Virus record (IMG/VR): IMGVR_UViG_3300035182_001315
DNA: 64,000 nucleotides
Source of the DNA: a virus
Taxonomy: Duplodnaviria; Caudoviricetes
Strand: one strand, 5' to 3'
Shown here: positions 43,541-64,000 of the stretch, in pieces
Numbering within the stretch: the first letter of the stretch is position 1
Layout: each line of letters opens with the position of its first letter
Translations under genes and position numbers: made by a program
Notes under the pieces: generated by a model
What the model saw: the letters and a program-made list of their open reading frames with translations, nothing else
What the model was told of the DNA's origin: nothing
Databases searched by the model: none

Positions 43541-44779
43541 ATGAGCAAAATCAAGGTTTTAGTTATCCCTTCCGACAGGACAGGTGTAAGTTATTTCAGA
43601 AGCACCAGCCCTCACATAGCCTTAGAAGAAAAATATCCCGACGAATTCCACATCGACATCGACTACGAGCCACAGATGCTCAATGACGAATGGGTGAAAC
43701 AATACGACATCATTCATTATCACCGTACACTTGGCCCTTTCGAAGGCGTTCCAGCCCTTTTGGATCGCATGGATAAGCTTGGCGTTGTTACTATAATGGA
43801 CTTGGATGACTATTGGTCTCCCGGCCCACACCATCCGGGGTATCTCATGATTAAGAATTCAGGTATGGATAAGCAAATCCTTGCTAACGTCCGTTCTGCA
43901 AGAAACATCACAACCACAACCCCTATATTCGCCGAAGAAATGAAGCGATTCAATCCGAACGTAACTGTTCTACCTAATGCCATTGACCCAAAACAAAAGC
44001 AATTCGTTTCGAATCCAGAACCTTCTGAAAGAATAAGAATCGGCTGGTTAGGCGGTTCAAGCCATTTGCATGACTTGGAAATCCTTAATGGACTTGTTAG
44101 TAAGGTAAAGAGCCATGGCCTTATAGATAAGGTACAATTCGTTCTGTGTGGATTCGATATCAGAGGCGCTATTACCATGATTGACGAGAAGACCAAAGAA
44201 CAGAAACAAAGACCTATCAAGCCACACGAAAGTGTTTGGTGCCAGTACGAAAGAATCTTCACGGATAACTACGGTACAATAAGCCCAGAATACAGAGCGT
44301 TCCTTGAACAGTTCATTCCTAATTCAGAATACCCAGATATCAAGAACCAACCTTACAGAAGAGTTTGGACAAAACCTATCAGCACATACGCTTCAAACTA
44401 TAACCTGTTTGATATCTCATTGGCACCAATCGAAGAGAATACCTTCAATAAGGTAAAGAGCCAGCTGAAGATAATTGAAGGTGGCTTCCATAAGAAAGCA
44501 GTTATTGCTCAGGACTTTGGCCCTTACCAAATCGATGTGAACCCAGCCAACAAATTCGGCGGCGAATGGGACCCAGAAGGTAACGGTATCCTTATTGACA
44601 CAAACAAAAATCATAAGGATTGGTTCAAGTATGTAAAGAAGCTTATTGAACAGCCAGAACTCATCGCTCAATTAAGTACAAATCTTCATAACATGGTGAG
44701 CCAGAAATATTCTGTATCAGCTGTTTCTGATGAAAGAAGAGAACTTTACAAGAGATTGGTTACTGAAAAAAAGAAGTAA
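43541..44779 (+). CDS. Glycosyltransferase, GT-B fold (GT4-like)
   Basis: SDRTGVSYFRS, MDLDDYW, VLPNAID, IGWLGGSSH, DISLAPIEENTFNKVKSQLKIIE. Confidence 0.85.
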   Translation: MSKIKVLVIPSDRTGVSYFRSTSPHIALEEKYPDEFHIDIDYEPQMLNDEWVKQYDIIHYHRTLGPFEGVPALLDRMDKLGVVTIMDLDDYWSPGPHHPGYLMIKNSGMDKQILANVRSARNITTTTPIFAEEMKRFNPNVTVLPNAIDPKQKQFVSNPEPSERIRIGWLGGSSHLHDLEILNGLVSKVKSHGLIDKVQFVLCGFDIRGAITMIDEKTKEQKQRPIKPHESVWCQYERIFTDNYGTISPEYRAFLEQFIPNSEYPDIKNQPYRRVWTKPISTYASNYNLFDISLAPIEENTFNKVKSQLKIIEGGFHKKAVIAQDFGPYQIDVNPANKFGGEWDPEGNGILIDTNKNHKDWFKYVKKLIEQPELIAQLSTNLHNMVSQKYSVSAVSDERRELYKRLVTEKKK

Positions 44780-44795
44780 AAAGTTTTAGCTAAGG

Positions 44796-44826
44796 TTGCA
44801 ACACTGGGAAAGTTTTGGTATATTTG
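44796..44826 (+). promoter_or_regulatory. Bacteroidota-type promoter TTGCAA-N17-TATATTTG
   Basis: TTG at 44796-44798, TAnnTTTG at 44819-44826, 16 nt before the ATG at 44843. Confidence 0.65.
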
Positions 44827-44842
44827 CGAAAATTCAATACCT

Positions 44843-45436
44843 ATGACTCCAATTTCTAATGAAACCATCGCAAAGAATGCGAGAAAATTCTTCAAAGTAG
44901 CCACAGAAAAGGGCTTCATGAACGACGAATTAATGACCTTCTTAGGCTCAAACTTTATCGAAGCACCAGCCACTACAATGAAGGACATGAATAACGCATT
45001 TAAGGGTGGTCTTATTGACCATATTCTTAAGGTTACAACCTATGCTATCGGCTTAAACGACCTTCACAAAACAAACAAGGTTGATGCAACAAGCATTCTT
45101 AAGGTTTGTTTCCTTCACCAGATTGGCAAGGCACATTCTTATGTTCCAAACCCATCACAATGGCATGTTGAAAAACAAGGAAAGATTTACGAATTCACTG
45201 ACCAGCTTTCTATGCGTGTTGGTGAACGCTCTGCTTTCTATGCATTGTCTCACGGTATTACACTTACCGAAGAAGAATACCAAGCCATCGTTAATCATGA
45301 CAAGGATGACTCCGACAAACAATCCAAATACCATAACTCATGGTTGGGTGATTTGTTGAAGATTGCCACGGTTATGGCCATCGCTGAAGAAAAAAATACT
45401 AAGCCAGCAGTAGCAGTAGCAGCAGTTGCTGAATAA
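44843..45436 (+). CDS. HD-domain-like phosphohydrolase (HD altered to HQ)
   Basis: GGLIDHILKV...CFLHQIGK...RSAFYAL...IVNHD pattern of YhaM-like HD domains. Confidence 0.65.
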   Translation: MTPISNETIAKNARKFFKVATEKGFMNDELMTFLGSNFIEAPATTMKDMNNAFKGGLIDHILKVTTYAIGLNDLHKTNKVDATSILKVCFLHQIGKAHSYVPNPSQWHVEKQGKIYEFTDQLSMRVGERSAFYALSHGITLTEEEYQAIVNHDKDDSDKQSKYHNSWLGDLLKIATVMAIAEEKNTKPAVAVAAVAE

Positions 45437-45445
45437 TTTTATACC

Positions 45446-46027
45446 ATGGACGTAACAAGAATGACAGAGAAATTGCTTCTGACACTTGACCCAAATTCGG
45501 GTTATACTCAGAAGGATTTTGAAAAGGAATTCATGCAAGCAACGGTGAACTCCGCTGCTCTTAAGACAGACTTCTATAAGTTGAAGGTTAACTTCGTAAA
45601 CGAATCAAACAACCCAAACCCAGAGTACGCAACTCCCGGTTCTTCAGGCTTTGATTTACGTGCTAACCTTGAAGAACCACTTGAGATTCAAGCTGGACAA
45701 AGAAAACTGGTACCAACCGGCCTCTTCTTTGAACTACCAGACAACTATGAACTTCAGGTGCGCCCACGTAGCGGCCTTGCAATCAAGCAAGGTATTACCG
45801 TATTGAATACGCCGGGAACTGTAGATTCTGATTACCGTGGTGAAGTTAAGGTTATCCTTATCAATCTGAGCACAATCACTCAAGCCATTTTACATGGTGA
45901 TAGAATTGCTCAGGCAGTTATTGCTCCGGTTACAGCATCAAACATTGTGAAGCTACTTCAAATTGAAACAATTGGAACCAACACAGAAAGAGGTGCCGGT
46001 GGGTTTGGTTCAACGGGTTTACAATAA
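45446..46027 (+). CDS. dut: Trimeric dUTPase
   Basis: All five motifs present: [37 protein letters not shown]. Confidence 0.95.
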
Positions 46028-46044: not shown

Positions 46045-47511
46045 ATGATTACAGTAGTATATTGTACAAGAGAAGCAAACTCTAAGCACACAGACCATAT
46101 CATTAAGTCATCCGGCATGCCTAAGATGATTCAGGTAATTGAGATTGTTAATAACGGTGAAGCATTGACAAAGGCTTACAACCGTGGACTTGAAATGGCA
46201 AAGAATGATATCGTTGTATTTATGCACGATGACGTAACCTTTGACAACTCAGGCTGGGGAAAGAAATTGCTGAAGCATTTCCAAGAAACCGATTATGGTA
46301 TTCTTGGTTTAGCCGGTACTACAGACATCCCAGAAACAGGCAAGTGGTGGGAAGACCGCCAGAAGATGGTTGGTATTGTTAACCACGAAAGCGGCGGAAA
46401 GAAATGGGAATCAAAATACTCAAAGAGCTGGGAAGGTAGAATAACTGAAGTTGCTGTTGTTGATGGACTTTTCTTCGCAGTAAACAAGAAACGCATACAT
46501 GCAATCTTTGATGAAACAATCGATGGTTTCCACTTCTATGAATTGGATTTCGTATTGAGTAATCATCTTGATGGCGTAAAGGTTGGTGTTATTTACAACA
46601 TCCGTGTGACTCACAAATCTATCGGTCAGACAAACGCACAATGGGAATCAAACCGTGTTCAATTCTCAACGAAATTCGCCGACAAGCTTCCAATCAAGTT
46701 GGTACCAGATTTCCCTGAATCAGAAGAAATTGCTGACCCAAAGATTGATACACCAATCAAGGTGATTATCCAATCATCCGGCGATGGGGTAGTTCTTGAA
46801 AACCTGTATAATAAAATCATTTCTTTTGGATATCCAAGCCTGAGCGTGGTTGTTATCAGCAATGAAAGCAATTTCGAAGACTTGAAGCATCAATGCCAGT
46901 GGAACCCAGCAGTAAAGGTTTACGAAGGATTCTATAATTCACTTCCAAAGAACCTTTCAGTATTGAAGTTCGAAGATGACTTTATTACAAAAAGCGATGA
47001 GCTGGTTGTTTTCATGAACGACAATGTGAAGATTATTAACAACATCCTTACCAATTTCGCCAAGCTTTATAAGATAAACAAGAATACATTCGGTGGCGCT
47101 TTCCCGCTGGCTTACAATGAGAACAGAACAATTTTCTCTTCAAGTCTGAGCATCTTTGCTGACAAGGAAAACAAGGTGGGTATCGATATGAGAGATGGTA
47201 ATTCTTATTATAATGTGCAGTACGGTTACATTGTGAATGCGCTGGGAAACCTTGCGGATTGCTTTGCTACAACAGCAAATAACTTGGTACTTTTGGATTG
47301 GTTCAAGAATAACTTCGAGACCCCAATGTATTTCAATGAATTTGCTTTAAGGCTTTACTTAAAGAAGAAAATTGTGTATAATGATACAAACTCCCTGACG
47401 GTGCAGAAATCATTCTCTGGTCAACACAATATCCAGCAGGATTTCCAAACCTACATCGATGCAATTGCTTCCGATGTCAATTTACAGGCGTTGGTAAAAC
47501 AGATAAAATGA
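46045..47511 (+). CDS. Glycosyltransferase (GT-A/GT2-like) with second degenerate GT-A domain
   Basis: LTKAYNRG, FMHDDV, VVDGLFFA, FHFYELDF; second half VFMNDNV. Confidence 0.8.
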   Translation: MITVVYCTREANSKHTDHIIKSSGMPKMIQVIEIVNNGEALTKAYNRGLEMAKNDIVVFMHDDVTFDNSGWGKKLLKHFQETDYGILGLAGTTDIPETGKWWEDRQKMVGIVNHESGGKKWESKYSKSWEGRITEVAVVDGLFFAVNKKRIHAIFDETIDGFHFYELDFVLSNHLDGVKVGVIYNIRVTHKSIGQTNAQWESNRVQFSTKFADKLPIKLVPDFPESEEIADPKIDTPIKVIIQSSGDGVVLENLYNKIISFGYPSLSVVVISNESNFEDLKHQCQWNPAVKVYEGFYNSLPKNLSVLKFEDDFITKSDELVVFMNDNVKIINNILTNFAKLYKINKNTFGGAFPLAYNENRTIFSSSLSIFADKENKVGIDMRDGNSYYNVQYGYIVNALGNLADCFATTANNLVLLDWFKNNFETPMYFNEFALRLYLKKKIVYNDTNSLTVQKSFSGQHNIQQDFQTYIDAIASDVNLQALVKQIK

Positions 47512-48290
47512 TAAAAATAATTTCAGGTTATACAGATAAAGGTGGCTCAACGGTCGCCTTTATCAATTTGACGAACGCCCTGAATGCTGCCGGTTACGAA
47601 ACCATCATGTACGGGCCACATCCGTGGTTTATGCATCATTGCAAATCAGATACCATTCAGAACTTTAAACCGGAACCAGATGATAATGTCATTGCTCACT
47701 TCTTGGATTTGAAGGTTAGGCCGAACGTTAAAAAGATTGTTTTGGCTTGCCATGAGAAATGGTGGTATGACGTAGCTAAGGTTCAACAGTTCTGGGATGA
47801 GGTAATCTTCCTGCATAAGGCACATAGAGAATATCATGGCGGTTATAGAGGCGATTGGACCATAATTCCGAATATCAAGGAACCTTTCATAATGAGAGAG
47901 AAACCAGAATTGGATTTGGTTGCCGGTATCGTTGGTGGAATTGAAGACAGGAAACAAACTCATGTTTCAATTCAAAGAGCGATGAAAGACCGTTGCAAAC
48001 AGATTTATCTTTTCGGTGGAATAAACGACAAAAGATATTACGAGCAAATGGTTAAACCCATGCTCAATCCAAGGATAATTGAATACGGCTACGCTTCAGA
48101 TAAACAAGCCATGTACGATTTGGTTGGTAGGGTTTATCACTCATCGAAAGGTGAAGTGGCATCACTGGTAAAGGATGAGTGTTTTTCAACCGGCACAAAA
48201 TTTTTCGGTAACGAGGAAACGGAAAATCAAATCTCAACACTTACCAATAACGAGGTTGTAGACCTTTGGAAAATAGTTTTTAGCTTATGA
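47508..48290 (+). CDS. Glycosyltransferase, GT-B (GT4-like)
   Basis: GGSTVAFINL N-terminus; EVASLVKDE is an E-x7-E motif. Confidence 0.7.
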   Translation: MIKIISGYTDKGGSTVAFINLTNALNAAGYETIMYGPHPWFMHHCKSDTIQNFKPEPDDNVIAHFLDLKVRPNVKKIVLACHEKWWYDVAKVQQFWDEVIFLHKAHREYHGGYRGDWTIIPNIKEPFIMREKPELDLVAGIVGGIEDRKQTHVSIQRAMKDRCKQIYLFGGINDKRYYEQMVKPMLNPRIIEYGYASDKQAMYDLVGRVYHSSKGEVASLVKDECFSTGTKFFGNEETENQISTLTNNEVVDLWKIVFSL

Positions 48291-49003
48291 TAATACACGC
48301 ACATATACTGGCATGGAACGAAGAAATGATTCTTCCGTATACCTTGGATTACTACTCCCTGATATGCGATAAGATTTTCGTCTATGATAACATGTCTACC
48401 GATGGTTCTGACGCAATTTACGCCAAGTATCCAAAAGTAAGTGTTATCAAGTGGTCAAGCAATGATGAGATAAACGAAATGAATTACGTTAACATCAAAT
48501 CAATGGCTTATCGGGAAACGAGCAGAGATGCTGACTGGGTTATTGTTTGTGATTGTGATGAATTTTTGTATTCTCCAATGTTATTAGAAGTACTGGAGAT
48601 TTATAAAATCACAGGGGTAACCGTTCCGAAAATTAATGGTCATGACATGGTGTCTGCAACCTTCCCAGAATACGATGGTGGTTCATTAATTGCTAAGATT
48701 AGAACTGGTTCGGATGTTTACGGCCCGATGAGCAAGAATATCATCTTTAACCCAAAGCTGGATGTATCCTATGGGATTGGTGGACACAGCTTTCAGGCTC
48801 CGGGTGCGGTTTATTCAGAAGCCGTTAATTTAAAATTGCTTCATTATAAGTTCCTTGGTAAGGATTATGTAAAGAAGCTTTATATCGCCAGAGCCAAGAG
48901 ACTTTCAACTTGGAACAAGCAGCATAAGTTCGGCGAGCATTACTTCAACCTTCCGTTCGAATACATGGATAGGTTGTTGAAAGAAAACAGACAAGTTATA
49001 TGA
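48287..49003 (+). CDS. Glycosyltransferase family 2-like
   Basis: AWNEE, YDNMSTDGS, VCDCDEF, LLHYKF. Confidence 0.8.
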   Translation: MIIHAHILAWNEEMILPYTLDYYSLICDKIFVYDNMSTDGSDAIYAKYPKVSVIKWSSNDEINEMNYVNIKSMAYRETSRDADWVIVCDCDEFLYSPMLLEVLEIYKITGVTVPKINGHDMVSATFPEYDGGSLIAKIRTGSDVYGPMSKNIIFNPKLDVSYGIGGHSFQAPGAVYSEAVNLKLLHYKFLGKDYVKKLYIARAKRLSTWNKQHKFGEHYFNLPFEYMDRLLKENRQVI

Positions 49004-49824
49004 GACAAATATTAGTATCAGACTTTACCATAAAGGAAGTTTCCCACGGTGGTTCAGAATGGGTAAACCAAGTGGTTATGGACAGATTTCCAGACTTAGA
49101 ATTCTGGTATTCTCAGCAAGTAACTGAATGGGATAAGGATGCATTTTATATTATCTCTAACATTTCTCTAATGAATCAGGCTTTGGTTAGACAAATCCCC
49201 AGCCTCAACTACATAATCTTAGAAAACGACTATAAAATTTGTCATAGCCGTCATCCATGGCGCTGGCCCAATTCTTTGGTTCCTCATAACGAGCGCATAA
49301 ACTACGATATCTATGCGAATGCAAAGGCTGTTTTTGTACAGACAACAGACCACATGAATGTTTACAAGGCCAATGATGTGAAGGCAAACTTTATCAATCT
49401 GAATTGTTCCATATGGTCCGATTCGGATTTGGCATTATTACAAAGTTTTTTACGCAAGAAACCTTTGAAAAATGGAAAACAAGCGGTATATTCTACGGGA
49501 AACTGGATTAAAAATACTGAAGGTGCGGTTAAGTACTGTGCTGAAAATAAACTAGAAGCTGTGCAGATTGAAAATCAGGAGAAGAGAGAAGACTTTTTGG
49601 ATAAGCTGTCCGATTGTTCTGGGTTGGTATTCTTCCCAATTGCGAGAGAAACCTTTTGCAGGTTGTTGGTTGAGGCCAAGTGTCTTGGATTGAAGGTGAC
49701 TACTAACAAGAATTCGGGGGCGGCTATGGAGAATTGGTTCGGTATGGAAGGTGAAGACCTCTTGAAGTTCCTGAAGATAAAAACTGAAATAAACCTTAAG
49801 AAAATTGGGGAATACATAAAATAA
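49000..49824 (+). CDS. Glycosyltransferase, GT-B (GT4-like)
   Basis: HGGSE N-terminus; ETFCRLLVE E-x7-E motif followed by AKCLG. Confidence 0.75.
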   Translation: MRQILVSDFTIKEVSHGGSEWVNQVVMDRFPDLEFWYSQQVTEWDKDAFYIISNISLMNQALVRQIPSLNYIILENDYKICHSRHPWRWPNSLVPHNERINYDIYANAKAVFVQTTDHMNVYKANDVKANFINLNCSIWSDSDLALLQSFLRKKPLKNGKQAVYSTGNWIKNTEGAVKYCAENKLEAVQIENQEKREDFLDKLSDCSGLVFFPIARETFCRLLVEAKCLGLKVTTNKNSGAAMENWFGMEGEDLLKFLKIKTEINLKKIGEYIK

Positions 49825-49829
49825 AAGTA

Positions 49830-50765
49830 ATGAGTATTAAAGAATGGCTTAGACGACAAGCGATGGCGATAACACTCGCTGTTACCAATGTTCAAAAAAA
49901 TGCTTTGAACCAAGAAGCCAATGAGCTTACTGCTGGCTCAAATCTTGAACAGAAGAAGGAATCGAGCGATTTGCTTCAGGCATTGTTGCGTGGTGAGGTT
50001 AACCAAGAAGTGAAAGACCTTCGCTGGAGAACATATAAGGTTATGAAGGCCGCAGAAAAGAAAAACGCCAGACTTATCCCTAAGATGATTTATGGTGAAA
50101 ATGGAGAAAGAGAATTTGCTTATGATGAAGAAGGTAGTATTATTTTTGAATCTGCAACCGTTAATCCTCGAAACAAAGAAAGAGCACTCGAAAAGGTCGT
50201 TGTTGATTTGACAGATAACTATCCAGTAAAGATGGTTGTAAAGAATGAGCCAGTTACCAATCCACTTGATTCAAAAGCAGACGAGAACATGGTTGTCGGA
50301 TATTCTTCCAAGAATCTTAATGATATGCCAATCAAAATTATCAGAGATTTTGTACCAAAGTTTGAGATTGAAAACTACGCAAAGAAAATGGTTGTAAGAA
50401 CCATCTCCGATACGGAAGTTCTTTTGGAGTTCTATATCAGCAAATACATAGACCCGTACAACGCTTCAAGCAAAATGCTCGTAGCTGAAATGAATAAAAT
50501 ACTGACCAATGGTCCCGACAAGGTTAATTCTCTTGAAATAAAGGAAGTTGGTTTCATTTCTGACAATACTATCGGTTCTGATGACTTCATGGGTTACGCA
50601 TATGATATTATTGGGTTTGACAAGATTGTTGATTTCGACGGGTATTACGTTCTGAAATTCAAGGCAACCGTAACTCTGGATGGTGAAGACCTGATGGAAA
50701 AATACAGGGAAGCTGAACTTGACAGGAAGTATAATGAAAAGGAACAGAGAAAAATGACCATATGA
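49830..50765 (+). CDS. Hypothetical protein within the glycan island
   Basis: 311-aa ORF with no recognised motif. Confidence 0.65.
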   Translation: MSIKEWLRRQAMAITLAVTNVQKNALNQEANELTAGSNLEQKKESSDLLQALLRGEVNQEVKDLRWRTYKVMKAAEKKNARLIPKMIYGENGEREFAYDEEGSIIFESATVNPRNKERALEKVVVDLTDNYPVKMVVKNEPVTNPLDSKADENMVVGYSSKNLNDMPIKIIRDFVPKFEIENYAKKMVVRTISDTEVLLEFYISKYIDPYNASSKMLVAEMNKILTNGPDKVNSLEIKEVGFISDNTIGSDDFMGYAYDIIGFDKIVDFDGYYVLKFKATVTLDGEDLMEKYREAELDRKYNEKEQRKMTI

Positions 50766-51481
50766 GTGTAACAGCAATTCTTAATGGATTTAAAAGGCCA
50801 CAATCTTTACAGGAACAGGTTGATGCTATCAGAGCACAGACAATCCCTGTGGACGATATTATGCTTTGGCAGAATCACGATGAAGGATTCGATAAGAATC
50901 TTACCAGCCAGCTTACAACAGCCGTTTGTAACAGGAACTTGGGTGTATGGGCCAGATTTGCTTTTGCCCTTAATGCCAAGACTGAGTACATCGCAATGTT
51001 CGATGACGATACCATCCCCGGCACCATGTGGATTGAGAATTGTTTAAACACCATGAAAAGTCATGAAGGATTGCTTGGTAGCATTGGATTGGTTTTGGAT
51101 TCACCAAATGGATATCGACCACATACAAGACATGGTTGGGCCGAACCTAACGAGAAGGTTGTTGAGTGTGATATTGTTGGTCATGCTTGGTTCTTCAAAC
51201 GTGAATGGCTTGCAACATACTGGAGAGAATTACCACCAATCGATGTTACGCTGGTAGGTGAGGATATGCACTTCTCTTATATGATTCAAAAGTATCTTGG
51301 ATTGAAGACTTTTGTCCCACCGCATCCTAAGCATGTTCCAGAAATGTGGGGCAGCATAAAGGGCTGGCAGCTTGGTGTTGGGCCGCAAGCTATTTCAGCA
51401 AACGAACACAGTATTGTTCTGATGAACAATTATTTTAATATAATACGCAGCAAGGGTTTTAAATTGGTAAAGCATGGATAA
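50762..51481 (+). CDS. Glycosyltransferase family 2-like
   Basis: LNGFKRP, NLGVWARF, AMFDDDTIPG, GEDMHFS. Confidence 0.8.
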   Translation: MSVTAILNGFKRPQSLQEQVDAIRAQTIPVDDIMLWQNHDEGFDKNLTSQLTTAVCNRNLGVWARFAFALNAKTEYIAMFDDDTIPGTMWIENCLNTMKSHEGLLGSIGLVLDSPNGYRPHTRHGWAEPNEKVVECDIVGHAWFFKREWLATYWRELPPIDVTLVGEDMHFSYMIQKYLGLKTFVPPHPKHVPEMWGSIKGWQLGVGPQAISANEHSIVLMNNYFNIIRSKGFKLVKHG

Positions 51482-53646: not shown

Positions 53647-53649
53647 GGG

Positions 53650-53680
53650 TTTACATATTTATTTTTAATTAGTATCTTTG
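53650..53680 (+). promoter_or_regulatory. Bacteroidota-type promoter TTTACA-N17-TATCTTTG overlapping an ATATTTAT motif
   Basis: TATCTTTG at 53673-53680; ATATTTAT at 53655-53662. Confidence 0.65.
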
Positions 53681-53687
53681 CGTAACT

Positions 53688-54458: not shown

Positions 54459-54459
54459 C

Positions 54460-55610: not shown

Positions 55611-57295
55611 AAAAAAGAGTTTTAATATTGGGTGGTGGTGGCTTTATCGGCGGACACTTAGCGAAGAAACTAAAGTCTGAGGGTTGCTGGGTACGTGTTG
55701 TGGATATCAAGAAACATGAGTACTTTAAGGAAGAAGATTTCTGTCATGAATTCATTCTCGGAGACCTCAGAAATCCTTTAACCGTTTCAAAGGCAATGTT
55801 CTCCCCATCTCAATCATCACCAAATGATGCTGTTGGTAGCTTCGATGAAGTTTACCAGCTTGCGGCAGACATGGGCGGTGCCGGTTATATTTTTACTGGT
55901 GACCATGATGCAGACGTTATGCACAACTCAGCTCTTATCAACCTAAACGTTGCTCATTACGCTGAGAAGCACAAGGTGAAGAAGATATTTTACTCTTCAT
56001 CAGCATGCATGTATCCTGAACACAACCAGCTTGACCCTTTGAATCCAAACTGTGAAGAATCTTCTGCATACCCTGCAAATCCAGATTCTGAATATGGTTG
56101 GGAAAAGTTATTCAGCGAAAGACTCTACGGAGCATTCAGCCGTAACTATGGAATGGATGTACGTATTGCAAGGTTCCACAACATCTTCGGTCCTTATGGA
56201 ACATGGAAGGGTGGAAAGGAAAAAGCACCGGCAGCTATGTGCAGAAAGGCCGCTGAAACTGAGGCTGGCAGCAGCATTGAGGTTTGGGGTGACGGTCAAC
56301 AGACTCGTTCATTCTTATACATTGATGATTGTCTTAAGGCAATTGAGAAGTTCATGGAATCTAATTTCCAAGGGCCGGTGAATATCGGTTCTGAAGAAAT
56401 GGTAACAATCAACGAATTGGCTCAAATGGCTATTGATTTATCAGGAAAAGACATTAAGATTGATAATATTAAGGGTGTTGAATTCTTGTTGAAATACGGA
56501 TTCAATTGTCCTACAGGTGTTAGAGGAAGAAATTCTGATAACAAACTGTTCGAAGAAAAAATGAAGTGGAAGGTTAATCAGCCGTTGAAGGATGGCATGG
56601 CCAAGACCTTTAATTGGATAAAGAACCAGTTATACATGGATAAATTTTGCGTAGTAGTACAAGGCCCCAGCACCCAAGTGGATGAAATCAGGACAGCGTT
56701 CGGTGAGGCCGGTATTCATGTTATCTTTTCTACATGGGAAGGACAGAGGGATAAATATTCTGATAGCGATATCGTGGTGTTTAACGAATATCCAACTGAT
56801 GCTGGAATAGGGAATATCAACTATCAGAAGATTACAACTCTCAATGGTTTGATGAAAGCGAAACAGCTGGGGTTTGACTACGCATTAAAATTCAGAAGTG
56901 ACCAAATTCCGACGAATCCAAAAGAATTCGTTAAGTCTTTTTTTAATGACAGGCTTAACTTCTTTGCTTGGCACTTCACACCGGATTTGGCAATCAAGGG
57001 TTACATGGTTGATTATTTTATGTCTGGGCCGATTGACCAACTCATTGATATCTGGACGTTCGAATCAATCAGGTACAGCATTCCAGAGGCGATGATAACC
57101 AATGGAATTCTGAAGAATTTTGAGAAGTTCAATTTCCTTGTAAATGTTTTGGATGAGGACAACGATGTGTACTGGGACAAATATAAGATTAAACTTAGTA
57201 ACTTCAAGAACATCAAAACAACAACTTGGTTCGGTGAAATCGACCTGAGAATTGAGCCGGTTGTTCATGAAGCATATAAAACAGTTTTCGAATGA
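55607..57295 (+). CDS. GDP-mannose 3,5-epimerase-like SDR fused in frame to a WavE-like domain
   Basis: GGGGFIG, SSACMYP, YGWEK, RFHNIFGP, EKAPAAMCRK, VRGRNSDN (aa 1-342); then M344-DKFCVVVQGP...IFSTW...KFRSD (WavE-like). Confidence 0.85.
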   Translation: MKKRVLILGGGGFIGGHLAKKLKSEGCWVRVVDIKKHEYFKEEDFCHEFILGDLRNPLTVSKAMFSPSQSSPNDAVGSFDEVYQLAADMGGAGYIFTGDHDADVMHNSALINLNVAHYAEKHKVKKIFYSSSACMYPEHNQLDPLNPNCEESSAYPANPDSEYGWEKLFSERLYGAFSRNYGMDVRIARFHNIFGPYGTWKGGKEKAPAAMCRKAAETEAGSSIEVWGDGQQTRSFLYIDDCLKAIEKFMESNFQGPVNIGSEEMVTINELAQMAIDLSGKDIKIDNIKGVEFLLKYGFNCPTGVRGRNSDNKLFEEKMKWKVNQPLKDGMAKTFNWIKNQLYMDKFCVVVQGPSTQVDEIRTAFGEAGIHVIFSTWEGQRDKYSDSDIVVFNEYPTDAGIGNINYQKITTLNGLMKAKQLGFDYALKFRSDQIPTNPKEFVKSFFNDRLNFFAWHFTPDLAIKGYMVDYFMSGPIDQLIDIWTFESIRYSIPEAMITNGILKNFEKFNFLVNVLDEDNDVYWDKYKIKLSNFKNIKTTTWFGEIDLRIEPVVHEAYKTVFE

Positions 57296-58017
57296 ATGTA
57301 TTAATACCAATGGCTGGGCTGGGTTCTCGTTTTCCAGTAAGTGAATACAAGGTACCGAAGCCAATGATACCGATAAAGAATTTTGGTCTACCAATGATTG
57401 AGGTGGCTATCAAAACTCTTGATGTTTCTGGTAAATATATTTTTATTGTAAACAGTGCTCAACCAGAATATTTTGAAGTTGTGAAGACTCTTTGGAAAGC
57501 GGCTAATAATCCAATAATCATCAATGTTGATTATTTAACAGAAGGCCCAGCTTCAACTTGTTTATTGGCAACTCAATTTATTAACAACGATGAACCGTTG
57601 GTTATTGCTAACTGCGACCAAATTATGGAATGGTCAGGACAGTCTTTTTTGGAATACTGTAACCAATCAGATTCAGATGGTATCGTTGTAACGTATGATG
57701 TACAGACAACAAAAAACAGTTATGTGAAACTGGATGAGCGTGGATGGGCAACTGAATTTGCTGAAAAGAAAATCATCAGTAATCACTCCCTTAATGGTAT
57801 TCATTACTGGAAGAAGGGGTCTGATTTCGTTGAGTCAGCAATGAAAATGATTGACAAAGACATCAGGGTGAACAATGAATTTTATATTTCCCAGACGTAC
57901 AATGAACTTGTACAGGAAGGAAAGAAAATAACAATTTATGAAATAGACAAGTTTCAGCACTGGGCCGTAGGAACACCTGAAGACTTGGATAAATACAATG
58001 AACATGCGAATTTATAA
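57292..58017 (+). CDS. Sugar-phosphate nucleotidyltransferase (NTP_transferase family)
   Basis: LIPMAGLGSRF, PKPMI, TEGPA, IANCDQ, FAEKK, NNEFYIS, VGTPEDL. Confidence 0.85.
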   Translation: MNVLIPMAGLGSRFPVSEYKVPKPMIPIKNFGLPMIEVAIKTLDVSGKYIFIVNSAQPEYFEVVKTLWKAANNPIIINVDYLTEGPASTCLLATQFINNDEPLVIANCDQIMEWSGQSFLEYCNQSDSDGIVVTYDVQTTKNSYVKLDERGWATEFAEKKIISNHSLNGIHYWKKGSDFVESAMKMIDKDIRVNNEFYISQTYNELVQEGKKITIYEIDKFQHWAVGTPEDLDKYNEHANL

Positions 58018-58327
58018 TTTACGTGATATGGTGGGTGGTTGGTTTGTAGGTAACTTCGAACCGGCAGCATTACAAACAGATACTTTCGAGGTTTGTTATA
58101 AGCATCATAAAGAAGGTGAAGTATGGGACACACATTACCATAAGGAAGCCATTGAAGTTAATTTATTGGTTAAGGGTACGATGTTCATTAACGATATGAA
58201 GATAGTAGCTGGTGAAATCTTTGTTATTCCACCTTATTATGTTTCAGCACCAGTATTTGCAAGTGATTGTGAGCTGGTCGTAATTAAAACACCTTCAATT
58301 AAGGGTGACAAATATGTAGTAAAATAA
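57998..58327 (+). CDS. Cupin-domain protein
   Basis: GGWFVGNFEP, HYHKEAIEVN (cupin motif 1), GEIFVIPP (motif 2), VVIKTPS. Confidence 0.8.
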   Translation: MNMRIYNLRDMVGGWFVGNFEPAALQTDTFEVCYKHHKEGEVWDTHYHKEAIEVNLLVKGTMFINDMKIVAGEIFVIPPYYVSAPVFASDCELVVIKTPSIKGDKYVVK

Positions 58328-58332
58328 ACGAT

Positions 58333-59514
58333 ATGATATTTAAAGAAAAATTAAACGAACAGGATTACATTATAGTGAAGTACTATCTTGAATCAGAAAC
58401 CAACCTCAGAGATGCGGCTTGGAATTTGGCGATTGGCCAAAGCGTAGGTAACCCTAATGTAAGAAACAAATGGGAAAGCGATGAGTTATTCGAAAAATAT
58501 TCCGCAATGGTGGAAGGTGACGAGGAATCTTTAAAAGGTGTGAAGGGAGGGATAGTGAAGATTGGATTCCCCAAAATCAATTTGGATTGGGCTACTGACG
58601 GTGTTTCTCAATTGCTTTGCTTCATTATGGGTGGCCAGATGGACATCGACAACGTAACCAAGTGTCACGTGTTGGATATCGACTTCCCAGAATCAATCTC
58701 TTCAACATTCCTTAAGCCAAAGTTTGGCCTTACAGGATTCAGAGATTTCAGCAACACACATGGCAAGCCTTTCTTTGGTGCTATCGTAAAACCAAAGACT
58801 GGCATTTCAAGTGATGTACTTTTGGAGATGGTAAAGGAAATGGTTGATGGTGGTGTAAACTTCATCAAGGAAGACGAAATTCTTTCTAACCCAGCATTCT
58901 GTACGATTGAAGAAAGAGTTCCGAAAATCATGGAATACGTTAAAGGTAAGGGTGTGATATACTCTGTGTGTATCAACTCAGACCCTGCATATATATTGGA
59001 CCGTGTAAAGCGTGTTCACGAGCTGGGTGGAAACTCAGTTCACGTTAATTTTTGGTCTGGCCTTGGCGTATATAAGTCAATCCGTGAATTGGACCTTCCG
59101 ATTTTTATTCACTTCCAGAAATCTGGTGACAAGACCCTGACTGCAAAGTCTCACGATTATCATATCGAATGGTATGTAATCTGTAAGCTGGCCGCAGCCA
59201 TGGGTGTGGATTCGATTCATGCTGGCATGTATGGTGGTTATTTGAATGATGAGAAAGAAGAACTTCTTCACAACTTGGGGGTATTGAGAAGTGCGAATGT
59301 TATCCCAGCCTTGAGTTGTGGCATGCATGCCGGTTTGATTGACTACGTTACTGATAACGTGGGTATCGATTACATGGCGAACGTTGGTGGGGCTATTCAT
59401 GGTCATCCAGATTCAACCGGAGCCGGTTGTAGAGCAATAAGACAAGCCATAGACAAAACCTATGGTGAAGAATACTACAAGGCAATTGCCAAGTGGGGTA
59501 AAAAAACTGACTAA
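58333..59514 (+). CDS. RuBisCO-like protein (form IV RLP)
   Basis: K153-P-K155 (K175/K177), FIK179-E-D181-E182 (K201/D203/E204), H260 (H294), H296 (H327), S328-C-G, G352-G353. E60, R295 and K334 equivalents are replaced (G35, F261, Y303). Confidence 0.92.
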   Translation: MIFKEKLNEQDYIIVKYYLESETNLRDAAWNLAIGQSVGNPNVRNKWESDELFEKYSAMVEGDEESLKGVKGGIVKIGFPKINLDWATDGVSQLLCFIMGGQMDIDNVTKCHVLDIDFPESISSTFLKPKFGLTGFRDFSNTHGKPFFGAIVKPKTGISSDVLLEMVKEMVDGGVNFIKEDEILSNPAFCTIEERVPKIMEYVKGKGVIYSVCINSDPAYILDRVKRVHELGGNSVHVNFWSGLGVYKSIRELDLPIFIHFQKSGDKTLTAKSHDYHIEWYVICKLAAAMGVDSIHAGMYGGYLNDEKEELLHNLGVLRSANVIPALSCGMHAGLIDYVTDNVGIDYMANVGGAIHGHPDSTGAGCRAIRQAIDKTYGEEYYKAIAKWGKKTD

Positions 59515-60152
59515 TGATTATAAGTAATTTCGTAAACCATATCCTTGGTCAGAACAAGGATTATTCACCAAAGGTAATCTTGGACATCGGTTCAAGAGAC
59601 CTTGGCCAGAGCATTGAGCTGGGCTCCGTGTTCCCGAATGCCAAGATTTATGCCTTCGAACCAAACCCAGAACAGTTTAAGATTTGTGCTGAGTTAGCTA
59701 AGAATTATCCAAATATCACCGCAATTCCCAAGGCTGTAAGCAACATCACCGGCACCTTGGATTTTTATGTAACTCATGGTAACGTGGGCGCATCATCAAC
59801 GCTGGAACCTCTTGACGTTCCGTTCGGTACAAGCAGGGACTTTACAAAGATTACTGTTGAATCAATCATCCTTTATGATTGGTTAAACGCTGAAGGAATT
59901 GACCAAGTTGACGTTATGTGGATGGACGCTCAGGGTATCGAATTGTCTGTATTGAAAAGTCTTGGTGAAAAATTGGAAAAAGTTAAGTATCTTCACTGTG
60001 AAGCGGCAGAAATTGGGTATTACAAGGGACATCAGTTGAAGGCTGAGCTTGATGAATACTTGGTTTCAATGGGTTTTGACCTTTTATTTAAAAACGAAGC
60101 ATACCATCCTTACAAAGAGGGAGATATTATTGCTACAAACAGAAACATATGA
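59514..60152 (+). CDS. FkbM-family methyltransferase
   Basis: ILDIGSRD, YAFEP, GASS, DVMWMDAQGIELSVLKS. Confidence 0.85.
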   Translation: MIISNFVNHILGQNKDYSPKVILDIGSRDLGQSIELGSVFPNAKIYAFEPNPEQFKICAELAKNYPNITAIPKAVSNITGTLDFYVTHGNVGASSTLEPLDVPFGTSRDFTKITVESIILYDWLNAEGIDQVDVMWMDAQGIELSVLKSLGEKLEKVKYLHCEAAEIGYYKGHQLKAELDEYLVSMGFDLLFKNEAYHPYKEGDIIATNRNI

Positions 60153-60712
60153 TACTTATAAGCCACAGGGGGAACATTGACGGCATCAATCCAAAATTGG
60201 AGAATGACCCGATGTATATCAAGATGGCCCTGACCATGGGTTATCATGTTGAAATTGACGTTTGGTATTCAAACGAACAATGGTACCTTGGCCATGACCT
60301 ACCAACGTTTCCAATTGATGAATCATTTCTTGAGAATGATAAGCTTTGGTGCCATTCGAAGAATCATTACGCAATGGAGAAGATGTTACATAACCATTTG
60401 ATTCATTGTTTCTGGCATGAGAATGACCAGCTGACCCTCACTTCAAAAAGATTTGTGTGGACATATATGGGTAAGAATCAAATAGCAAATTCAATTGCTG
60501 TTCTCCCTGAGAAATTTCCATTCAGAGAGATTTCACCAAACGTTGTTGGTATATGCAGCGATAATATTAAAAATTATAAAGGTAATGATATTACTCACTT
60601 ACGGAACCCGTCCAGAATATATAAAGGTTCATCCAATAATGGTGGAGATGACCAGAAGGCAAATGAAATTCAAGACTCTTTTCACAGGCCAACACAAGGA
60701 CCTGCTATCTGA
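60149..60712 (+). CDS. GDPD/PI-PLC-like phosphodiesterase-fold protein (C-terminus extended over the next gene)
   Basis: ISHRGN, VEIDVW, LGHD, WCHSKN, FWHEND, GICSD. Confidence 0.7.
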   Translation: MILISHRGNIDGINPKLENDPMYIKMALTMGYHVEIDVWYSNEQWYLGHDLPTFPIDESFLENDKLWCHSKNHYAMEKMLHNHLIHCFWHENDQLTLTSKRFVWTYMGKNQIANSIAVLPEKFPFREISPNVVGICSDNIKNYKGNDITHLRNPSRIYKGSSNNGGDDQKANEIQDSFHRPTQGPAI

Positions 60713-61622
60713 TAATGAAGCTGATTACAATCACCCATTTGAAAACTTCCCCGGTAACCGTTTAGATTCGGTATTGAAGAATTGCTTGAGCCTGAACGAT
60801 AGATACTTTGATGGTATCACCCATGTATTGGTACAAGGTGATACAACGTCTGTATTGGGATTGGCTATAACAGCAATGCACAGAGGATTAAAGATTATTC
60901 ATCTTGAAGCTGGGCTAAGAACTTATGATAAACAGAATCCATTCCCAGAGGAAAACAATCGTAGACTTATTTCAGCAATCGCTGATATTCATTTATGTCC
61001 AACAATACAGAGTCAATCAAATTTAATTCGAGAAGGTATTGATGAGAATGATACATACCTTGTTGGTAACACCGGCTTAGATGAAATCTTAAAAAAAATA
61101 ATTCCTCTCCGTGATACAAGTGAACCAAAAGAAATATTAATAACTCTTCATAGACGAGAAAATCACGAGAAGATGGATGAGTGGTTTACCGCAATTAATG
61201 ATTTAGCCAAGGACTATCCACAATATAATTTTGTTGTCCCTTTGCATCCAAACCCAATGGTACAAAAGCATAAAGATTTATTAACAGATGTTGTTATCGT
61301 TGAGCCAATGTCTCATTTTCAATTGTTAAATTTCATCTCAAGAAGTAGATTGGTAATAACCGATTCGGGCGGTATTCAAGAAGAATGTTCGTTCTTGAGA
61401 AAGAAAGTGCTGGTTTGTCGTAAGATAACCGAAAGGCCAGAATCGCTGGGGTTAACGTCATGGCCGGTTATGACTCCAAACGATTTGAAGAATCTGTTTA
61501 GGAAACACAGTAGTTCCTATTTTGTTCCGCCAGATACATATTGTCCATACGGGGACGGGCATGCCTCAGAAAAAATCTGTGATATATTTCAGGGTTGGTG
61601 TAACTTCGAAAAAGGTCTTTGA
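60585..61622 (+). CDS. wecB: UDP-N-acetylglucosamine 2-epimerase (non-hydrolysing)
   Basis: GTRPE, VQGDT, HLEAGLR, PEENNR, TLHRREN, DSGGIQEE, YGDG. True start MILLTYG at 60585. Confidence 0.92.
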   Translation: MILLTYGTRPEYIKVHPIMVEMTRRQMKFKTLFTGQHKDLLSDNEADYNHPFENFPGNRLDSVLKNCLSLNDRYFDGITHVLVQGDTTSVLGLAITAMHRGLKIIHLEAGLRTYDKQNPFPEENNRRLISAIADIHLCPTIQSQSNLIREGIDENDTYLVGNTGLDEILKKIIPLRDTSEPKEILITLHRRENHEKMDEWFTAINDLAKDYPQYNFVVPLHPNPMVQKHKDLLTDVVIVEPMSHFQLLNFISRSRLVITDSGGIQEECSFLRKKVLVCRKITERPESLGLTSWPVMTPNDLKNLFRKHSSSYFVPPDTYCPYGDGHASEKICDIFQGWCNFEKGL

Positions 61623-61642
61623 TATTTATTTAAAAAGACTGC

Positions 61643-62479
61643 ATGATTAAAAAAGCGTCCGAAAAGAAACCAAGAGGTAGGAAATCCCTTTCCGCCTCGT
61701 CCGAGACCGTTACAGAAATCAAAAACAAAGCAACCTTACCAGAACTAATCAAATTCGCCCAGCCCTTCAAGTGCAAGACTAAAAACCAGAAGATATTGGC
61801 CCAACTCATTGCTGAGAAGGAAATTATCATCGCTTCTGGAGCTGCCGGTGTGGGTAAAACCTACGTAGCAATCGCTATTGCGCTAGAACTGATTAAGTCC
61901 ACAAACACACCCTTTAACAAAATTATCATATCCAAGCCAGCCGTGGAATCCGAAGAGGAACATGGCTTTTTGCCGGGAGACCAAAGAGAGAAGATGGAAC
62001 CATTCGTGGCATCCATTCTTGATATCATTGACAAGCTTATCGGCAAGGGCAGCAGGTTGGCCTTGGAAGAGGCTGGATACCTCGAAATCATGGCTCTGGC
62101 CTACGTTAGAGGTAAATCCATCGATAACGCCATTTTCATACTTGATGAGGCGCAGAACACATCCCCAAGCCAAATGAAGACGGTTCTAACCCGTATTGGC
62201 TATAACTCCAAGTTTGTAATCACTGGTGACCTTGACCAATCAGATAGGTACCGTCATATCCATGAGAGTGGATTGTATGATGCTATCAAAAAACACAAAA
62301 ATATCCCAGAAATCGGATTTATTGAGTTTGATTTGGAGGATATCGTGAGAAACAAATTGATTAGCAAGATTTTGGAGAACTACAAACAGCCGGAATTTGT
62401 TCAAAAACCAAAGGTTGTTTTGGTTAAACCAGAGAAAAAATTGCCTTGGTGGAAGAAATTTCTTAATTGGCTTCATTAA
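61643..62479 (+). CDS. phoH: PhoH-family ATPase
   Basis: GAAGVGKT, RGKSIDNAIFILDEAQN, GDLDQSD, DIVRNKLI. Confidence 0.93.
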   Translation: MIKKASEKKPRGRKSLSASSETVTEIKNKATLPELIKFAQPFKCKTKNQKILAQLIAEKEIIIASGAAGVGKTYVAIAIALELIKSTNTPFNKIIISKPAVESEEEHGFLPGDQREKMEPFVASILDIIDKLIGKGSRLALEEAGYLEIMALAYVRGKSIDNAIFILDEAQNTSPSQMKTVLTRIGYNSKFVITGDLDQSDRYRHIHESGLYDAIKKHKNIPEIGFIEFDLEDIVRNKLISKILENYKQPEFVQKPKVVLVKPEKKLPWWKKFLNWLH

Positions 62480-62540
62480 TTCGGTAAATAACTGAATAGA
62501 AGTACTTTACTTTATCACCAAAAGGAATTATTTTAATTCC

Positions 62541-63143
62541 ATGAGGATAGGTATATCAATTAATGAAGTTTTAAGAAACTTTTTGGGGCAGTTAATCTAC
62601 ACTTACGAAAAGTATATTGGCGAACTCGACATCAATACGTCAGATGTAACGGACTTTGACCTTATAAAGTCATTCCCTTTCGTTACTGAAGCTGAGATGA
62701 AGAGATTCCTTTACGCTGGAGAAGGCTCATTGGAAGTCTTCGGCCACGCTGATGAGATGACAGATGGTCTTATGGGTCACTTCAATCGTTTTGTTTTGGA
62801 TCTGAAGGACGATGGTCATTACGTTGAGCTTACCGGCAAGGAAGCCAACAAAAGCATTCAATCTACTTTTTTCTACTTATCAAAAACAGGTTGCAGAATC
62901 AGCGACATTCGCTTTGTTACAGACAGTACCAAGGAATGGGACGGCCTCGACCTTTTGATTACTGCGAACCCAGACGCACTTAAAAACAAACCCAGCGGCA
63001 AAATCAGCATCAAGATAAACGCACCGTATAACACCGATGCTCCGGCTGATTACGCCTTCGACTCAATCGTTGATTTCATAAAAGATTTCAATCTACGTGA
63101 TGTCGTATTAAATACCAAAATAACAACTTACGAAGAAATTTAA
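62541..63143 (+). CDS. HAD-fold 5'(3')-deoxynucleotidase-like protein, catalytic Asp motif degenerate
   Basis: MRIGISINEVLRNF in place of DxDxV; K..W..LDLLI..NP and IKINAPYN resemble the NT5C pattern. Confidence 0.5.
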   Translation: MRIGISINEVLRNFLGQLIYTYEKYIGELDINTSDVTDFDLIKSFPFVTEAEMKRFLYAGEGSLEVFGHADEMTDGLMGHFNRFVLDLKDDGHYVELTGKEANKSIQSTFFYLSKTGCRISDIRFVTDSTKEWDGLDLLITANPDALKNKPSGKISIKINAPYNTDAPADYAFDSIVDFIKDFNLRDVVLNTKITTYEEI

Positions 63144-63147
63144 AACT

Positions 63148-63498
63148 ATGATAGAATTCGGTGACAGCCAGTATTACATCGACCTTGACACCTTGGATAA
63201 ATTGATTACATTAAAAGGTAGCAAGGTTGACGAAGTTACAGTCAAAACAATCACGAACCAAACAACTGGTGTTATAACTGTAGAGAAAGAAGAATTTACA
63301 AGGAAGTCAGAAGAAGGAAAGACCATCGACATGGCCAAGTATGACATGTTAAAATATTTCATTGAACTCTTGGTTGAGGATGAAAGCGTCGATGATGATT
63401 CACTGGGTTCTGAGAGAGCACTAAACAAAGCTTCATTAGCTTATAAGATAGTATTTAACACCCTCTTAAAAGAAAACGTTCTTAAAGAGGCAGAATAA
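63148..63498 (+). CDS. Hypothetical protein
   Basis: 116-aa ORF coupled to its neighbours. Confidence 0.6.
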   Translation: MIEFGDSQYYIDLDTLDKLITLKGSKVDEVTVKTITNQTTGVITVEKEEFTRKSEEGKTIDMAKYDMLKYFIELLVEDESVDDDSLGSERALNKASLAYKIVFNTLLKENVLKEAE

Positions 63499-63514
63499 AA
63501 AACAAAACACCAAT

Positions 63515-64000
63515 ATGGAAGACAAGCAAACAAAATTGGACCAAGTTAAAGGGTTCATCAAGAATTTAGAGAATAAAGATTTTACGCTTTATTTCTTCAC
63601 GCTCGACACAAAGGGTAATCCTACTGCCGGTATCGCAAACATTTACGAACACGTAAAGGTTTTGAACAGTTTGGGTTACAAAGCCGTTATTCTTCATGAA
63701 AAGAATGACTACAAATTACACGCTGATGAAGCTGGTATGGGTATCGCAGAATGGCTGGGTGCTGAATACGCTGCATTGCCACACAAGGCAATCGAAGGTC
63801 AGAACCTGAATATCAGACCAACTGATTTCATCGTTATTCCAGAAATTTTCTCTACCATCATGGACCAAGTTAAATCTTTCCCATGTCGTAAGATTGTATT
63901 CTGCCAAAGCTATGACTATCTTTTGGAACTCCTTCCAATCGGTAAGAGATGGGATTTGGATTACGGCTTCAGCCATGTTATTACTACAAGTGAAAGACAA
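63515..64000 (+). CDS. Glycosyltransferase (GT4-like), N-terminal part; runs off the window end
   Basis: Manual translation from ATG 63515: MEDKQ...TAGIANIYEHVKVLNSLGY...DFIVIPEIF...KIVFCQSYDY; open to 64000. Confidence 0.7.
   Translation, partial: MEDKQTKLDQVKGFIKNLENKDFTLYFFTLDTKGNPTAGIANIYEHVKVLNSLGYKAVILHEKNDYKLHADEAGMGIAEWLGAEYAALPHKAIEGQNLNIRPTDFIVIPEIFSTIMDQVKSFPCRKIVFCQSYDYLLELLPIGKRWDLDYGFSHVITTSERQ

Follow-up and report, generated by a model that had tools for sequence, protein, structure and literature searches.

A putative glycan-assembly locus in an uncultured jumbo myophage: a conserved frame, an exchangeable sugar cassette and virion proteins as the favoured acceptor

What does a tailed phage build with some 20 kb of sugar-active genes, and to what is the product attached? 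The question is raised by a 64,000-nt stretch of viral DNA (IMG/VR record IMGVR_UViG_3300035182_001315), hereafter the window, and in particular by its block at positions 43541-64000. An initial annotation, made from the letters alone, described this block as a ~20-kb glycan factory with about 10 glycosyltransferases (GTs), a description borne out by our analysis: seven GTs are well supported and four are weak, with GT-A, GT-B and GT-D folds represented. Judged by gene content and order, the locus consists of a conserved frame and, within it, a cassette that related phages swap as a whole. As an overall explanation, we give an even chance to a glycan-assembly locus of a jumbo myophage with a virion-attached product. 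Virion proteins as the acceptor stand slightly below that level in our estimate, but we favour them over remodelling of the host envelope and over DNA modification. Under this mechanism, a strain-specific, O-methylated hetero-oligosaccharide would be assembled in the cytoplasm and joined to virion proteins late in infection, so that the sugar coat of the particle would be variable.

The first 41 kb of the window hold myovirus genes, including those for the tape measure, a 947-aa sheath, tail fibres, a 1613-aa DNA polymerase and a helicase. Relatives 64-67 kb in length were rated 18-19% complete by CheckV and should therefore represent jumbo genomes of roughly 350 kb, which suggests that the window, too, comes from an uncultured jumbo myophage with a genome of about 350 kb. 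Window proteins are also encoded on a 228,620-bp contig. The lineage is undescribed and distinct from the known GT-rich cyanophages, and a nucleotide search with the island against 50,697 GenBank phage records gave no match; an exact-word search of the IMG/VR set did not return this phage either.

The bacterial look of the enzymes, and nothing more, would speak for a bacterial polysaccharide locus joined to phage DNA during assembly, an outcome that the initial annotation had named as fatal to its reading. We consider the probability of such a chimera negligible and the idea refuted as far as sequence data can decide it. GC content is even across the whole window (0.36-0.42), phage genes lie on both sides of the block, and a phage motif, ATATTTAT, occurs inside it. 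Moreover, the identical DNA was found in six independent metagenome assemblies and also in sediment and microbial-mat runs, none of the runs listed for the stretch being RNA, and related phages are collinear. These observations indicate a phage-borne locus.

The block contains 26 open reading frames (ORFs), all on the + strand and with short gaps or overlaps between them. Besides two closer relatives (L007 and L013), three more distant ones (L109, L110 and L111) were reached through homologues of ORF 49830 (ORFs are named here by their first position). In the three distant relatives the frame genes keep the same order, with 33-78% identity. The frame genes of the window are the following:

43541..44779, + strand: GT-B (GT4-like) glycosyltransferase; Pfam Glyco_transf_4, E 6e-5, under the cut-off
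44843..45436, + strand: HD-like protein (weak); E 0.08, with HQ in place of the usual HD motif
45446..46027, + strand: dUTPase; NF001862, 179 bits against a cut-off of 103
46045..47511, + strand: GT-A glycosyltransferase (Glyco_tranf_2_5), 488 aa with an extra C-terminal region; Pfam, 99 bits
48287..49003, + strand: GT-A glycosyltransferase (Glyco_tranf_2_4); Pfam, 64 bits
49830..50765, + strand: 311-aa protein; family searches blank, model pLDDT 75
61643..62479, + strand: PhoH-like ATPase; kept in relatives
62541..63143, + strand: 200-aa ("NT5C-like") protein; kept in relatives, hidden Markov model (HMM) searches blank
63148..63498, + strand: 116-aa protein; kept in relatives
63515..64000, + strand: start of a 373-aa GT-B-like gene (weak) that continues beyond the window; weak Glycos_transf_1 matches

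Identity to the relatives is 63% for the GT4-like gene (over the 109 residues of the homologue that lie inside L109), 57% for the HD-like gene, 58% for the dUTPase, 33% for GT2_5, 34% for GT2_4, 37% for the 311-aa protein and 53-59% for PhoH. The 373-aa GT-B-like gene is 56-71% identical over its full length and 62-78% over the 162 residues inside the window. Past the window end the frame goes on with a GT2 (46-65%) and a sigma-like gene (54-76%). The middle changes from one relative to the next: L109 has GT11 and FkbM there, and L111 has DegT, an epimerase, GT2, DUF5672, a sulfotransferase-like gene, DUF3431, GT11, FkbM and GT17. For this reason we regard 50762-61622 as one of several interchangeable cassettes, with a module around a RuBisCO-like protein (RLP) inside it. 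The two closer relatives retain a version near to that of the window, with differences in detail; the island of L007 also holds inserted GIY-YIG-like and NUMOD3 homing-endonuclease-like genes.

The layout bears directly on the idea that the glycan sits on phage DNA, linked to hydroxymethylated pyrimidines and serving to evade restriction and CRISPR. Multi-sugar glycans can be placed on DNA by viral GTs (Pyle 2024, cited in PMC12619734), a dUTPase and an HD-like gene lie inside the locus, and the 260-aa GT-B described below is as conserved as a core replication gene. The initial annotation had proposed DNA as one of two acceptors from the interleaved dUTPase, HD and NT5C-like genes, a step that did not hold. 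The dUTPase is real, the HD call is weak and the NT5C-like call found no HMM match. Given the frame-plus-cassette arrangement, the dUTPase and the HD-like gene are best seen as fixed neighbours and not as partners of the variable sugar chemistry: they are kept where the cassette differs and, since both belong to the frame, are no evidence for DNA glycosylation. ORF 62541, for its part, appears to lack the expected catalytic aspartates, the N-terminal DxD (HAD-type) residues being missing in 6/6 homologues.

Additionally, no hydroxymethylase was seen within the window. PF00303 matches are present in three of the five relatives; the two scanned further score as true, plain thymidylate synthases (TIGR03284, 276-291 bits, cut-off 108), and a 100%-complete relative has no second member of the PF00303 family. 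Several O-methyltransferases and about ten GTs also exceed any DNA-glycan system known to us. A DNA acceptor is thus, in our estimate, very improbable.

Two side observations concern these nucleotide-related genes. ORF 62541 resembles NT5C/HAD proteins at both ends and may be a pseudo-enzyme, a fold that the HMM searches did not support; an active nucleotidase was rejected because of the missing N-terminal aspartates. The ThyA proteins of two relatives (L108, G002:C1:48900-50400; L009, 16581-17858) are 425-435 aa long and match the model in two or three pieces, which suggests an inserted segment of roughly 120-170 residues.

If not DNA, the acceptor may be sought among surfaces exposed on the virion or on the host, and the timing of island expression is relevant to both. 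The window has 21 copies of the motif ATATTTAT where 5.1 would be expected, a fourfold excess, and at least 13 of them stand on the coding strand 5-45 nt ahead of a start codon. Genes headed by it include those for the tape measure, the sheath and several tail proteins, as well as the head of the fibre operon; no copy precedes the DNA polymerase and helicase genes. Sites across the window include 3518, 10922, 18211, 41003, 41025, 53655 and 61622. All three units of the island are headed by it:

41025..41032, + strand: ATATTTAT at the head of the + strand block, which starts 17 nt after it; divergent from the copy at 41003 (- strand) that heads the tail-fibre operon
53655..53662, + strand: ATATTTAT, 26 nt before the next ATG, heading the unit from 53688; found by motif scan
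61622..61629, + strand: ATATTTAT upstream of PhoH, heading the unit from 61643; position kept in L007 and L013

The initial annotation had read the sites at 53655 and 61622 as late motifs. The motif is present at both, and the label "late" is plausible, with the qualification that ATATTTAT also heads PhoH. The pattern fits co-expression of island and virion genes but is not proof of late timing. We note ATATTTAT as a candidate phage promoter, perhaps a late one, and a sigma-like gene just past the window end.

Several observations speak for a virion acceptor. The motif common to island and virion genes is one, together with the divergent arrangement of the + strand block and the tail-fibre operon; another is that all island enzymes are soluble. 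As the initial annotation had held, no transmembrane segment was detected in the island proteins (no 19-residue Kyte-Doolittle window above 1.7, apart from a spurious TTG extension before WecB), no membrane protein is predicted in the island, and the window yielded no flippase, polymerase or initiating phosphoglycosyltransferase. The search was extended to five relatives, two of them 91-100% complete, in which PF02397 (Bac_transf), PF00953 (WecA-type) and PF01943 (Wzx) were not found. Exchange of the cassette suggests selection on something exposed. Windows of 30 residues with 40-47% Ser+Thr occur in the N-terminal domain of the sheath, in two virion proteins of no assigned role and in the fibres. 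For mycobacteriophages, it is established that the phage's own GTs glycosylate the virion (Freeman 2023, cited in PMC12619734).

The same solubility can be turned towards the host. The initial annotation had concluded from the missing transmembrane segments that the acceptor is cytoplasmic, a conclusion that is not compelled. GTs for lipid-linked glycans normally lack transmembrane helices, those of undecaprenyl-linked glycans being usually soluble or peripheral, and the host could prime and export. The soluble GTs of the island might therefore work at the inner side of the host membrane and extend an undecaprenyl-linked or lipid A-core acceptor which the host primes, flips and ligates, altering the surface of the infected cell, for example to block superinfection or grazing. 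WecB, WavE and the GT9-neighbour contexts are typical of lipopolysaccharide (LPS), enterobacterial common antigen and capsule pathways, the Pelagibacter version of the RLP cassette adjoins a heptosyltransferase, a HAD-nucleotidyltransferase fusion and a KdsB-like gene, and cassette swapping is like that of O-antigen loci. In fact, the cyanophage literature interprets such clusters in this way (PMC12801897). Nevertheless, a priming transferase or flippase was found neither in the window nor in the five relatives, a promoter-like motif held in common with virion genes fits poorly with an early protective function, and a lytic jumbo phage would be short of time to renew the cell surface. Envelope remodelling is therefore somewhat unlikely, though far from negligible.

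Glycosylation of virion proteins remains the reading we favour, and several points weigh against it. Soluble GTs fit lipid-linked acceptors equally well, and the Pelagibacter cassette lies in a neighbourhood of LPS-core type. The Ser/Thr argument carries little weight because fibres are often rich in these residues, including those of phages that are not glycosylated. The capsid gene falls outside the window. The copy of ATATTTAT at 53655 has no exact match in L007 or L013, and the motif may be a general phage promoter and not a late one, since it also precedes PhoH and a gene at 23155. Calls for 4 of the 11 GTs and 2 of the 4 methyltransferases are weak, and glycan, acceptor and transcript are all predictions.

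The GTs that are not listed among the frame genes are given below; one further weak GT, a WavE-like domain, is fused to an epimerase and listed with it.

47508..48290, + strand: compact 260-aa GT of GT-B/GT4 fold; AlphaFold2 and Foldseek, Pfam blank
49000..49824, + strand: probable GT-B-like GT (weak); PglA and GlgA profiles matched in their C-terminal domains, E 0.07-0.1
50762..51481, + strand: GT2 that opens the variable cassette; Glycos_transf_2, 29 bits against a cut-off of 23
51474..52193, + strand: GT-D (DUF1792)-like GT (weak); PDB profile, E 0.005
52193..52888, + strand: GT of GT-A fold; Atlas structure search, TM-score 0.62-0.76 to GT2/GT8-type clusters
53688..54458, + strand: GT8-like GT-A; Atlas structure search, TM-score 0.65-0.70 to Glyco_transf_8 clusters

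Single-sequence searches against Pfam and PHROGs left ORFs 47508, 49000, 49830, 51474, 52193, 53688, 62541 and 63148 nameless, and pairwise hhalign comparisons among the GT-B candidates and among the weak methyltransferases yielded nothing usable (probabilities <=12%). The initial annotation's GT-D-like transferase was recovered in weak form: the sole PDB profile matches of ORF 51474 are the GalT1 entries 4phr and 4pfx (one protein), at E 0.005 over 52 residues only, and Pfam GT-D gave no match. We take these entries to be the solved DUF1792/GT-D enzyme, which serves in cytoplasmic O-glycosylation of a serine-rich adhesin; to that extent the match counts for a virion-protein acceptor.

The AlphaFold2 model of ORF 47508, built on a 32-sequence alignment (pLDDT 93), is a compact GT-B that Foldseek matches with probability 1.0 and TM-scores of 0.65-0.71 to GT4 enzymes including BshA, PimA and HepE. 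Its structural matches also include tetrahydrobiopterin glucosyltransferase and a methylmannose-polysaccharide mannosyltransferase. The family has 597 metagenomic matches at E <= 0.001, the best 120 of which are 57-70% identical, on contigs of up to 385 kb. We note that this conservation is unusually strong for a phage GT, and that this minimal GT-B was missed by Pfam.

Because ORF 47508 resembles small-molecule GT4 enzymes such as BshA and tetrahydrobiopterin glucosyltransferase, as well as the methylmannose-polysaccharide enzyme, and because every island enzyme is soluble, the product might coat nothing and instead play a part in infection physiology, be it as a methylated oligosaccharide of the cytoplasm, as a glycolipid or as a glycosylated metabolite. 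We rate this as improbable, and leave a small share of the odds on the acceptor unassigned. Wholesale cassette exchange is more readily understood for a surface that is exposed and under selection than for a metabolite, and the motif common with virion genes also argues against it.

What would the glycan be made of? The genes for its modification and for two of its donor sugars are these:

52888..53646, + strand: probable S-adenosylmethionine (SAM) methyltransferase (weak)
54460..55056, + strand: probable FkbM-type methyltransferase (weak)
55053..55610, + strand: Methyltransf_24 (TylF-like) methyltransferase, firm; 71.5 bits
55607..57295, + strand: GDP-mannose 3,5-epimerase fused to a WavE-like domain, 562 aa; profile matches
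59514..60152, + strand: FkbM methyltransferase, firm; FkbM 53 bits, TIGR01444 76 bits
60585..61622, + strand: WecB, UDP-GlcNAc 2-epimerase, 345 aa; TIGR00236

Four SAM methyltransferases had been claimed, of which 55053 and 59514 are firm and 52888 and 54460 only weak. The two epimerase calls were upheld. Residues 4-346 of ORF 55607 match the Arabidopsis GDP-mannose 3,5-epimerase 2c59 (E 8e-89, 302 bits), and the next family reaches 83 bits; the WavE-like domain that had also been proposed scores 26.5 bits, just under its cut-off of 27, and counts as a weak GT. In L007, a phage related at 78%, the epimerase and the WavE-like part are two adjacent genes of 346 and 219 aa (7268-8960). WecB scores 234.8 bits against the TIGR00236 equivalog cut-off of 210.15, and its N-terminus is intact: the true start is the ATG at 60585, after which the GTRPE motif follows. 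A WecB bearing a transmembrane segment (60495-61622) was rejected, as the hydrophobic stretch belongs to the spurious TTG extension. The phage brings donor-sugar steps of its own: by family function, WecB would supply UDP-ManNAc, and the GDP-mannose 3,5-epimerase GDP-L-galactose or GDP-L-gulose.

A third donor may come from the RLP module (57292-60712), a set of four genes with the FkbM methyltransferase 59514 between the third and the fourth:

57292..58017, + strand: sugar-phosphate nucleotidyltransferase (first gene)
57998..58327, + strand: 109-aa metal-binding cupin (second gene); phrog_24762, Cupin_2 and 113-aa mannose-6-phosphate isomerase profiles
58333..59514, + strand: RLP, probably of the "Form IV-like" kind (third gene); RuBisCO large-chain homology
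60149..60712, + strand: miniature GDPD-like phosphodiesterase (fourth gene); HRG, EN, ExD and GHD motifs

ORF 58333 is an RLP and not a carboxylase, because its scores are far under the carboxylase cut-offs (170 bits, against 497 for form III). On motif inspection it keeps KPK, K-x-DE, H294, H327 and the Gly-Gly loop, that is, the carbamate/metal site and one phosphate site, and has Phe at the equivalent of Arg295 and Tyr at that of Lys334 in loop 6. A bona fide RuBisCO of forms I-III was ruled out on these replacements and on the score. A tblastn search with the RLP found no homologue in the 50,697 GenBank phage records. The mini-GDPD has only ~150 aa, roughly half a barrel, yet its HRG, EN, ExD and HD motifs are invariant in 25 homologues; its N-terminal 53 residues align to 7e0v. 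The ORF overlaps the start of WecB by 128 nt in another frame (60585-60712), with a 37-aa tail that is missing in homologues. This overlap is not a sequencing error, because the sequence is identical in three assemblies.

The four genes travel together. In a set of 96 RLP loci (80 from IMG/VR and 16 from cellular genomes), counting neighbours within 10 kb, the nucleotidyltransferase accompanies the RLP in 93, the mini-GDPD does so in 85 and the cupin in 78. No gene order is seen more often than nucleotidyltransferase-cupin-RLP-GDPD (43/96), and nucleotidyltransferase-RLP fusions occur. Flanking families include SDR epimerases, FkbM/TylF methyltransferases, GT1/GT4 enzymes and DegT aminotransferase. 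Altogether the module was found in 273 IMG/VR loci and 16 cellular genomes, the carriers including Pelagibacter, Verrucomicrobiae, bacteria of the candidate phyla radiation (CPR), namely Beckwithbacteria (a locus with 53% RLP identity), Saccharibacteria and Patescibacteria, and a Nanoarchaeia metagenome-assembled genome. The Pelagibacter locus lies on a complete chromosome. Taken together, nucleotidyltransferase, cupin, RLP and mini-GDPD would make an activated sugar.

RLPs of the "Form IV-like" kind from phages and Beckwithbacteria were described by Jaffe et al. 2019 (PMC6389311), where the function is left open and carbon metabolism is discussed. Matched by that description, ORF 58333 is alike in its occurrence on myovirus contigs and in its divergence from canonical Form IV. 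Here, in contrast, the RLP is firmly associated with a nucleotidyltransferase, a cupin and a mini-GDPD in glycan loci. In our literature search, no relevant paper connected RuBisCO-like proteins with nucleotide sugars, nucleotidyltransferases or glycosyltransferases. Cassette RLPs are often annotated as rbcL (in JGI names and in one table of auxiliary metabolic genes). The module is common in phages, and given the rbcL labels, reading it as a glycan gene set would correct claims of viral carbon fixation. In the Synechococcus phage Bellamy (MF351863.1, 154654-172953), a phrog_24762 cupin lies in the sugar cluster beside genes annotated as phosphatases, aldolase, kinase and nucleotidyltransferase, and the RLP is missing, so the cupin family is not confined to the RLP cassette.

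A side observation concerns the 311-aa frame protein, ORF 49830. Its model has three N-terminal helices and a beta domain for which tail-tube, Hcp and Dit folds dominate the VIA-align matches, at Z 5-6 and thus under a trustworthy level. In the PDB, Foldseek found no match at E <= 0.001, the Atlas search gave TM-scores <0.5 only, and BFVD returned a single match, an uncharacterised myovirus homologue. As modelled, the protein does not look like an enzyme, and it is a possible acceptor, adaptor or virion component.

With these elements a more specific and more tentative picture can be drawn, one that we consider doubtful as a whole but worth stating. The locus could be a phage counterpart of an O-antigen locus, in which the frame GTs and the 311-aa protein glycosylate virion proteins, and the exchangeable cassette sets the "serotype" of the particle by supplying L-galactose/L-gulose, ManNAc, O-methyl groups and a sugar made by a member of the RuBisCO superfamily together with the nucleotidyltransferase, the cupin and the half-size GDPD. 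If so, jumbo phages would wear glycan coats that vary, and proteins of the RuBisCO fold would take part in making nucleotide sugars. More generally, a glycan on the virion would mean strain-specific sugar coats in tailed phages outside the mycobacteriophages, and these could influence adsorption and aggregation, grazing and decay, and the way in which host defences recognize the particle. The frame-plus-cassette layout itself amounts to a natural experiment, with one frame and different sugars in each relative.

How does this locus compare with known systems? A GT-rich island in a large myophage is of an already known kind, and the one described here is a further example, since comparably GT-rich islands have been published for marine cyanophages. 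These belong to T4-like phages and are classed as LPS or cell-wall synthesis and modification islands. For S-SCSM2R, 13 GTs and 22 genes of cell-wall type are reported, and P-SSM2 and S-SCSM1 have homologues (PMC12801897); Bellamy has a comparable sugar cluster that includes a homologue of the 109-aa cupin. The initial annotation's view that giant viruses, and not described phages, are the more typical bearers of such a glycan was therefore overstated. Like the islands of P-SSM2, S-SCSM1, S-SCSM2R and Bellamy, the present one belongs to a large myovirus, combines at least 10 GTs with nucleotide-sugar epimerases and forms one variable region; for those islands, too, export genes are not reported and function is deduced from genes. 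Here the GT/nucleotide-sugar cluster likewise lies beside virion genes, and its gene content varies among relatives. Compared with the cyanophage islands, it adds a GDP-mannose 3,5-epimerase, several O-methyltransferases and the RuBisCO-like cassette, and it is organized as a conserved frame with an exchangeable cassette, headed by a virion-gene motif.

Chloroviruses and the fibril clusters of Mimivirus combine their own nucleotide-sugar synthesis with many GTs and methyltransferases into a lineage-specific particle glycan. These machineries differ in belonging to eukaryotic viruses and in consisting of unrelated genes, so that the likeness is functional only. Bacterial O-antigen and capsule loci, either Wzx/Wzy or ABC-dependent, are alike in uniting donor-sugar genes, GTs and modifying enzymes and in cassette replacement between strains. 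In contrast to them, the island has no priming phosphoglycosyltransferase, flippase, polymerase, transporter or any membrane protein (priming and flippase genes were not found in the five relatives either). The nearest parallel to the mechanism we favour is virion O-glycosylation in mycobacteriophages, where phage-encoded soluble GTs likewise act on virion proteins in the cytoplasm. Those systems reportedly use far fewer GTs than the present locus. Their acceptors (capsid and tail-tube C-termini) are reported as demonstrated (Freeman et al. 2023, cited in PMC12619734), whereas here the acceptor is a prediction; multi-sugar DNA glycans, too, are known from other phages (PMC12619734). What this locus adds to what is known is its explicit frame-and-cassette layout, a promoter-like motif in common with the virion genes and the presence of the RLP cassette.

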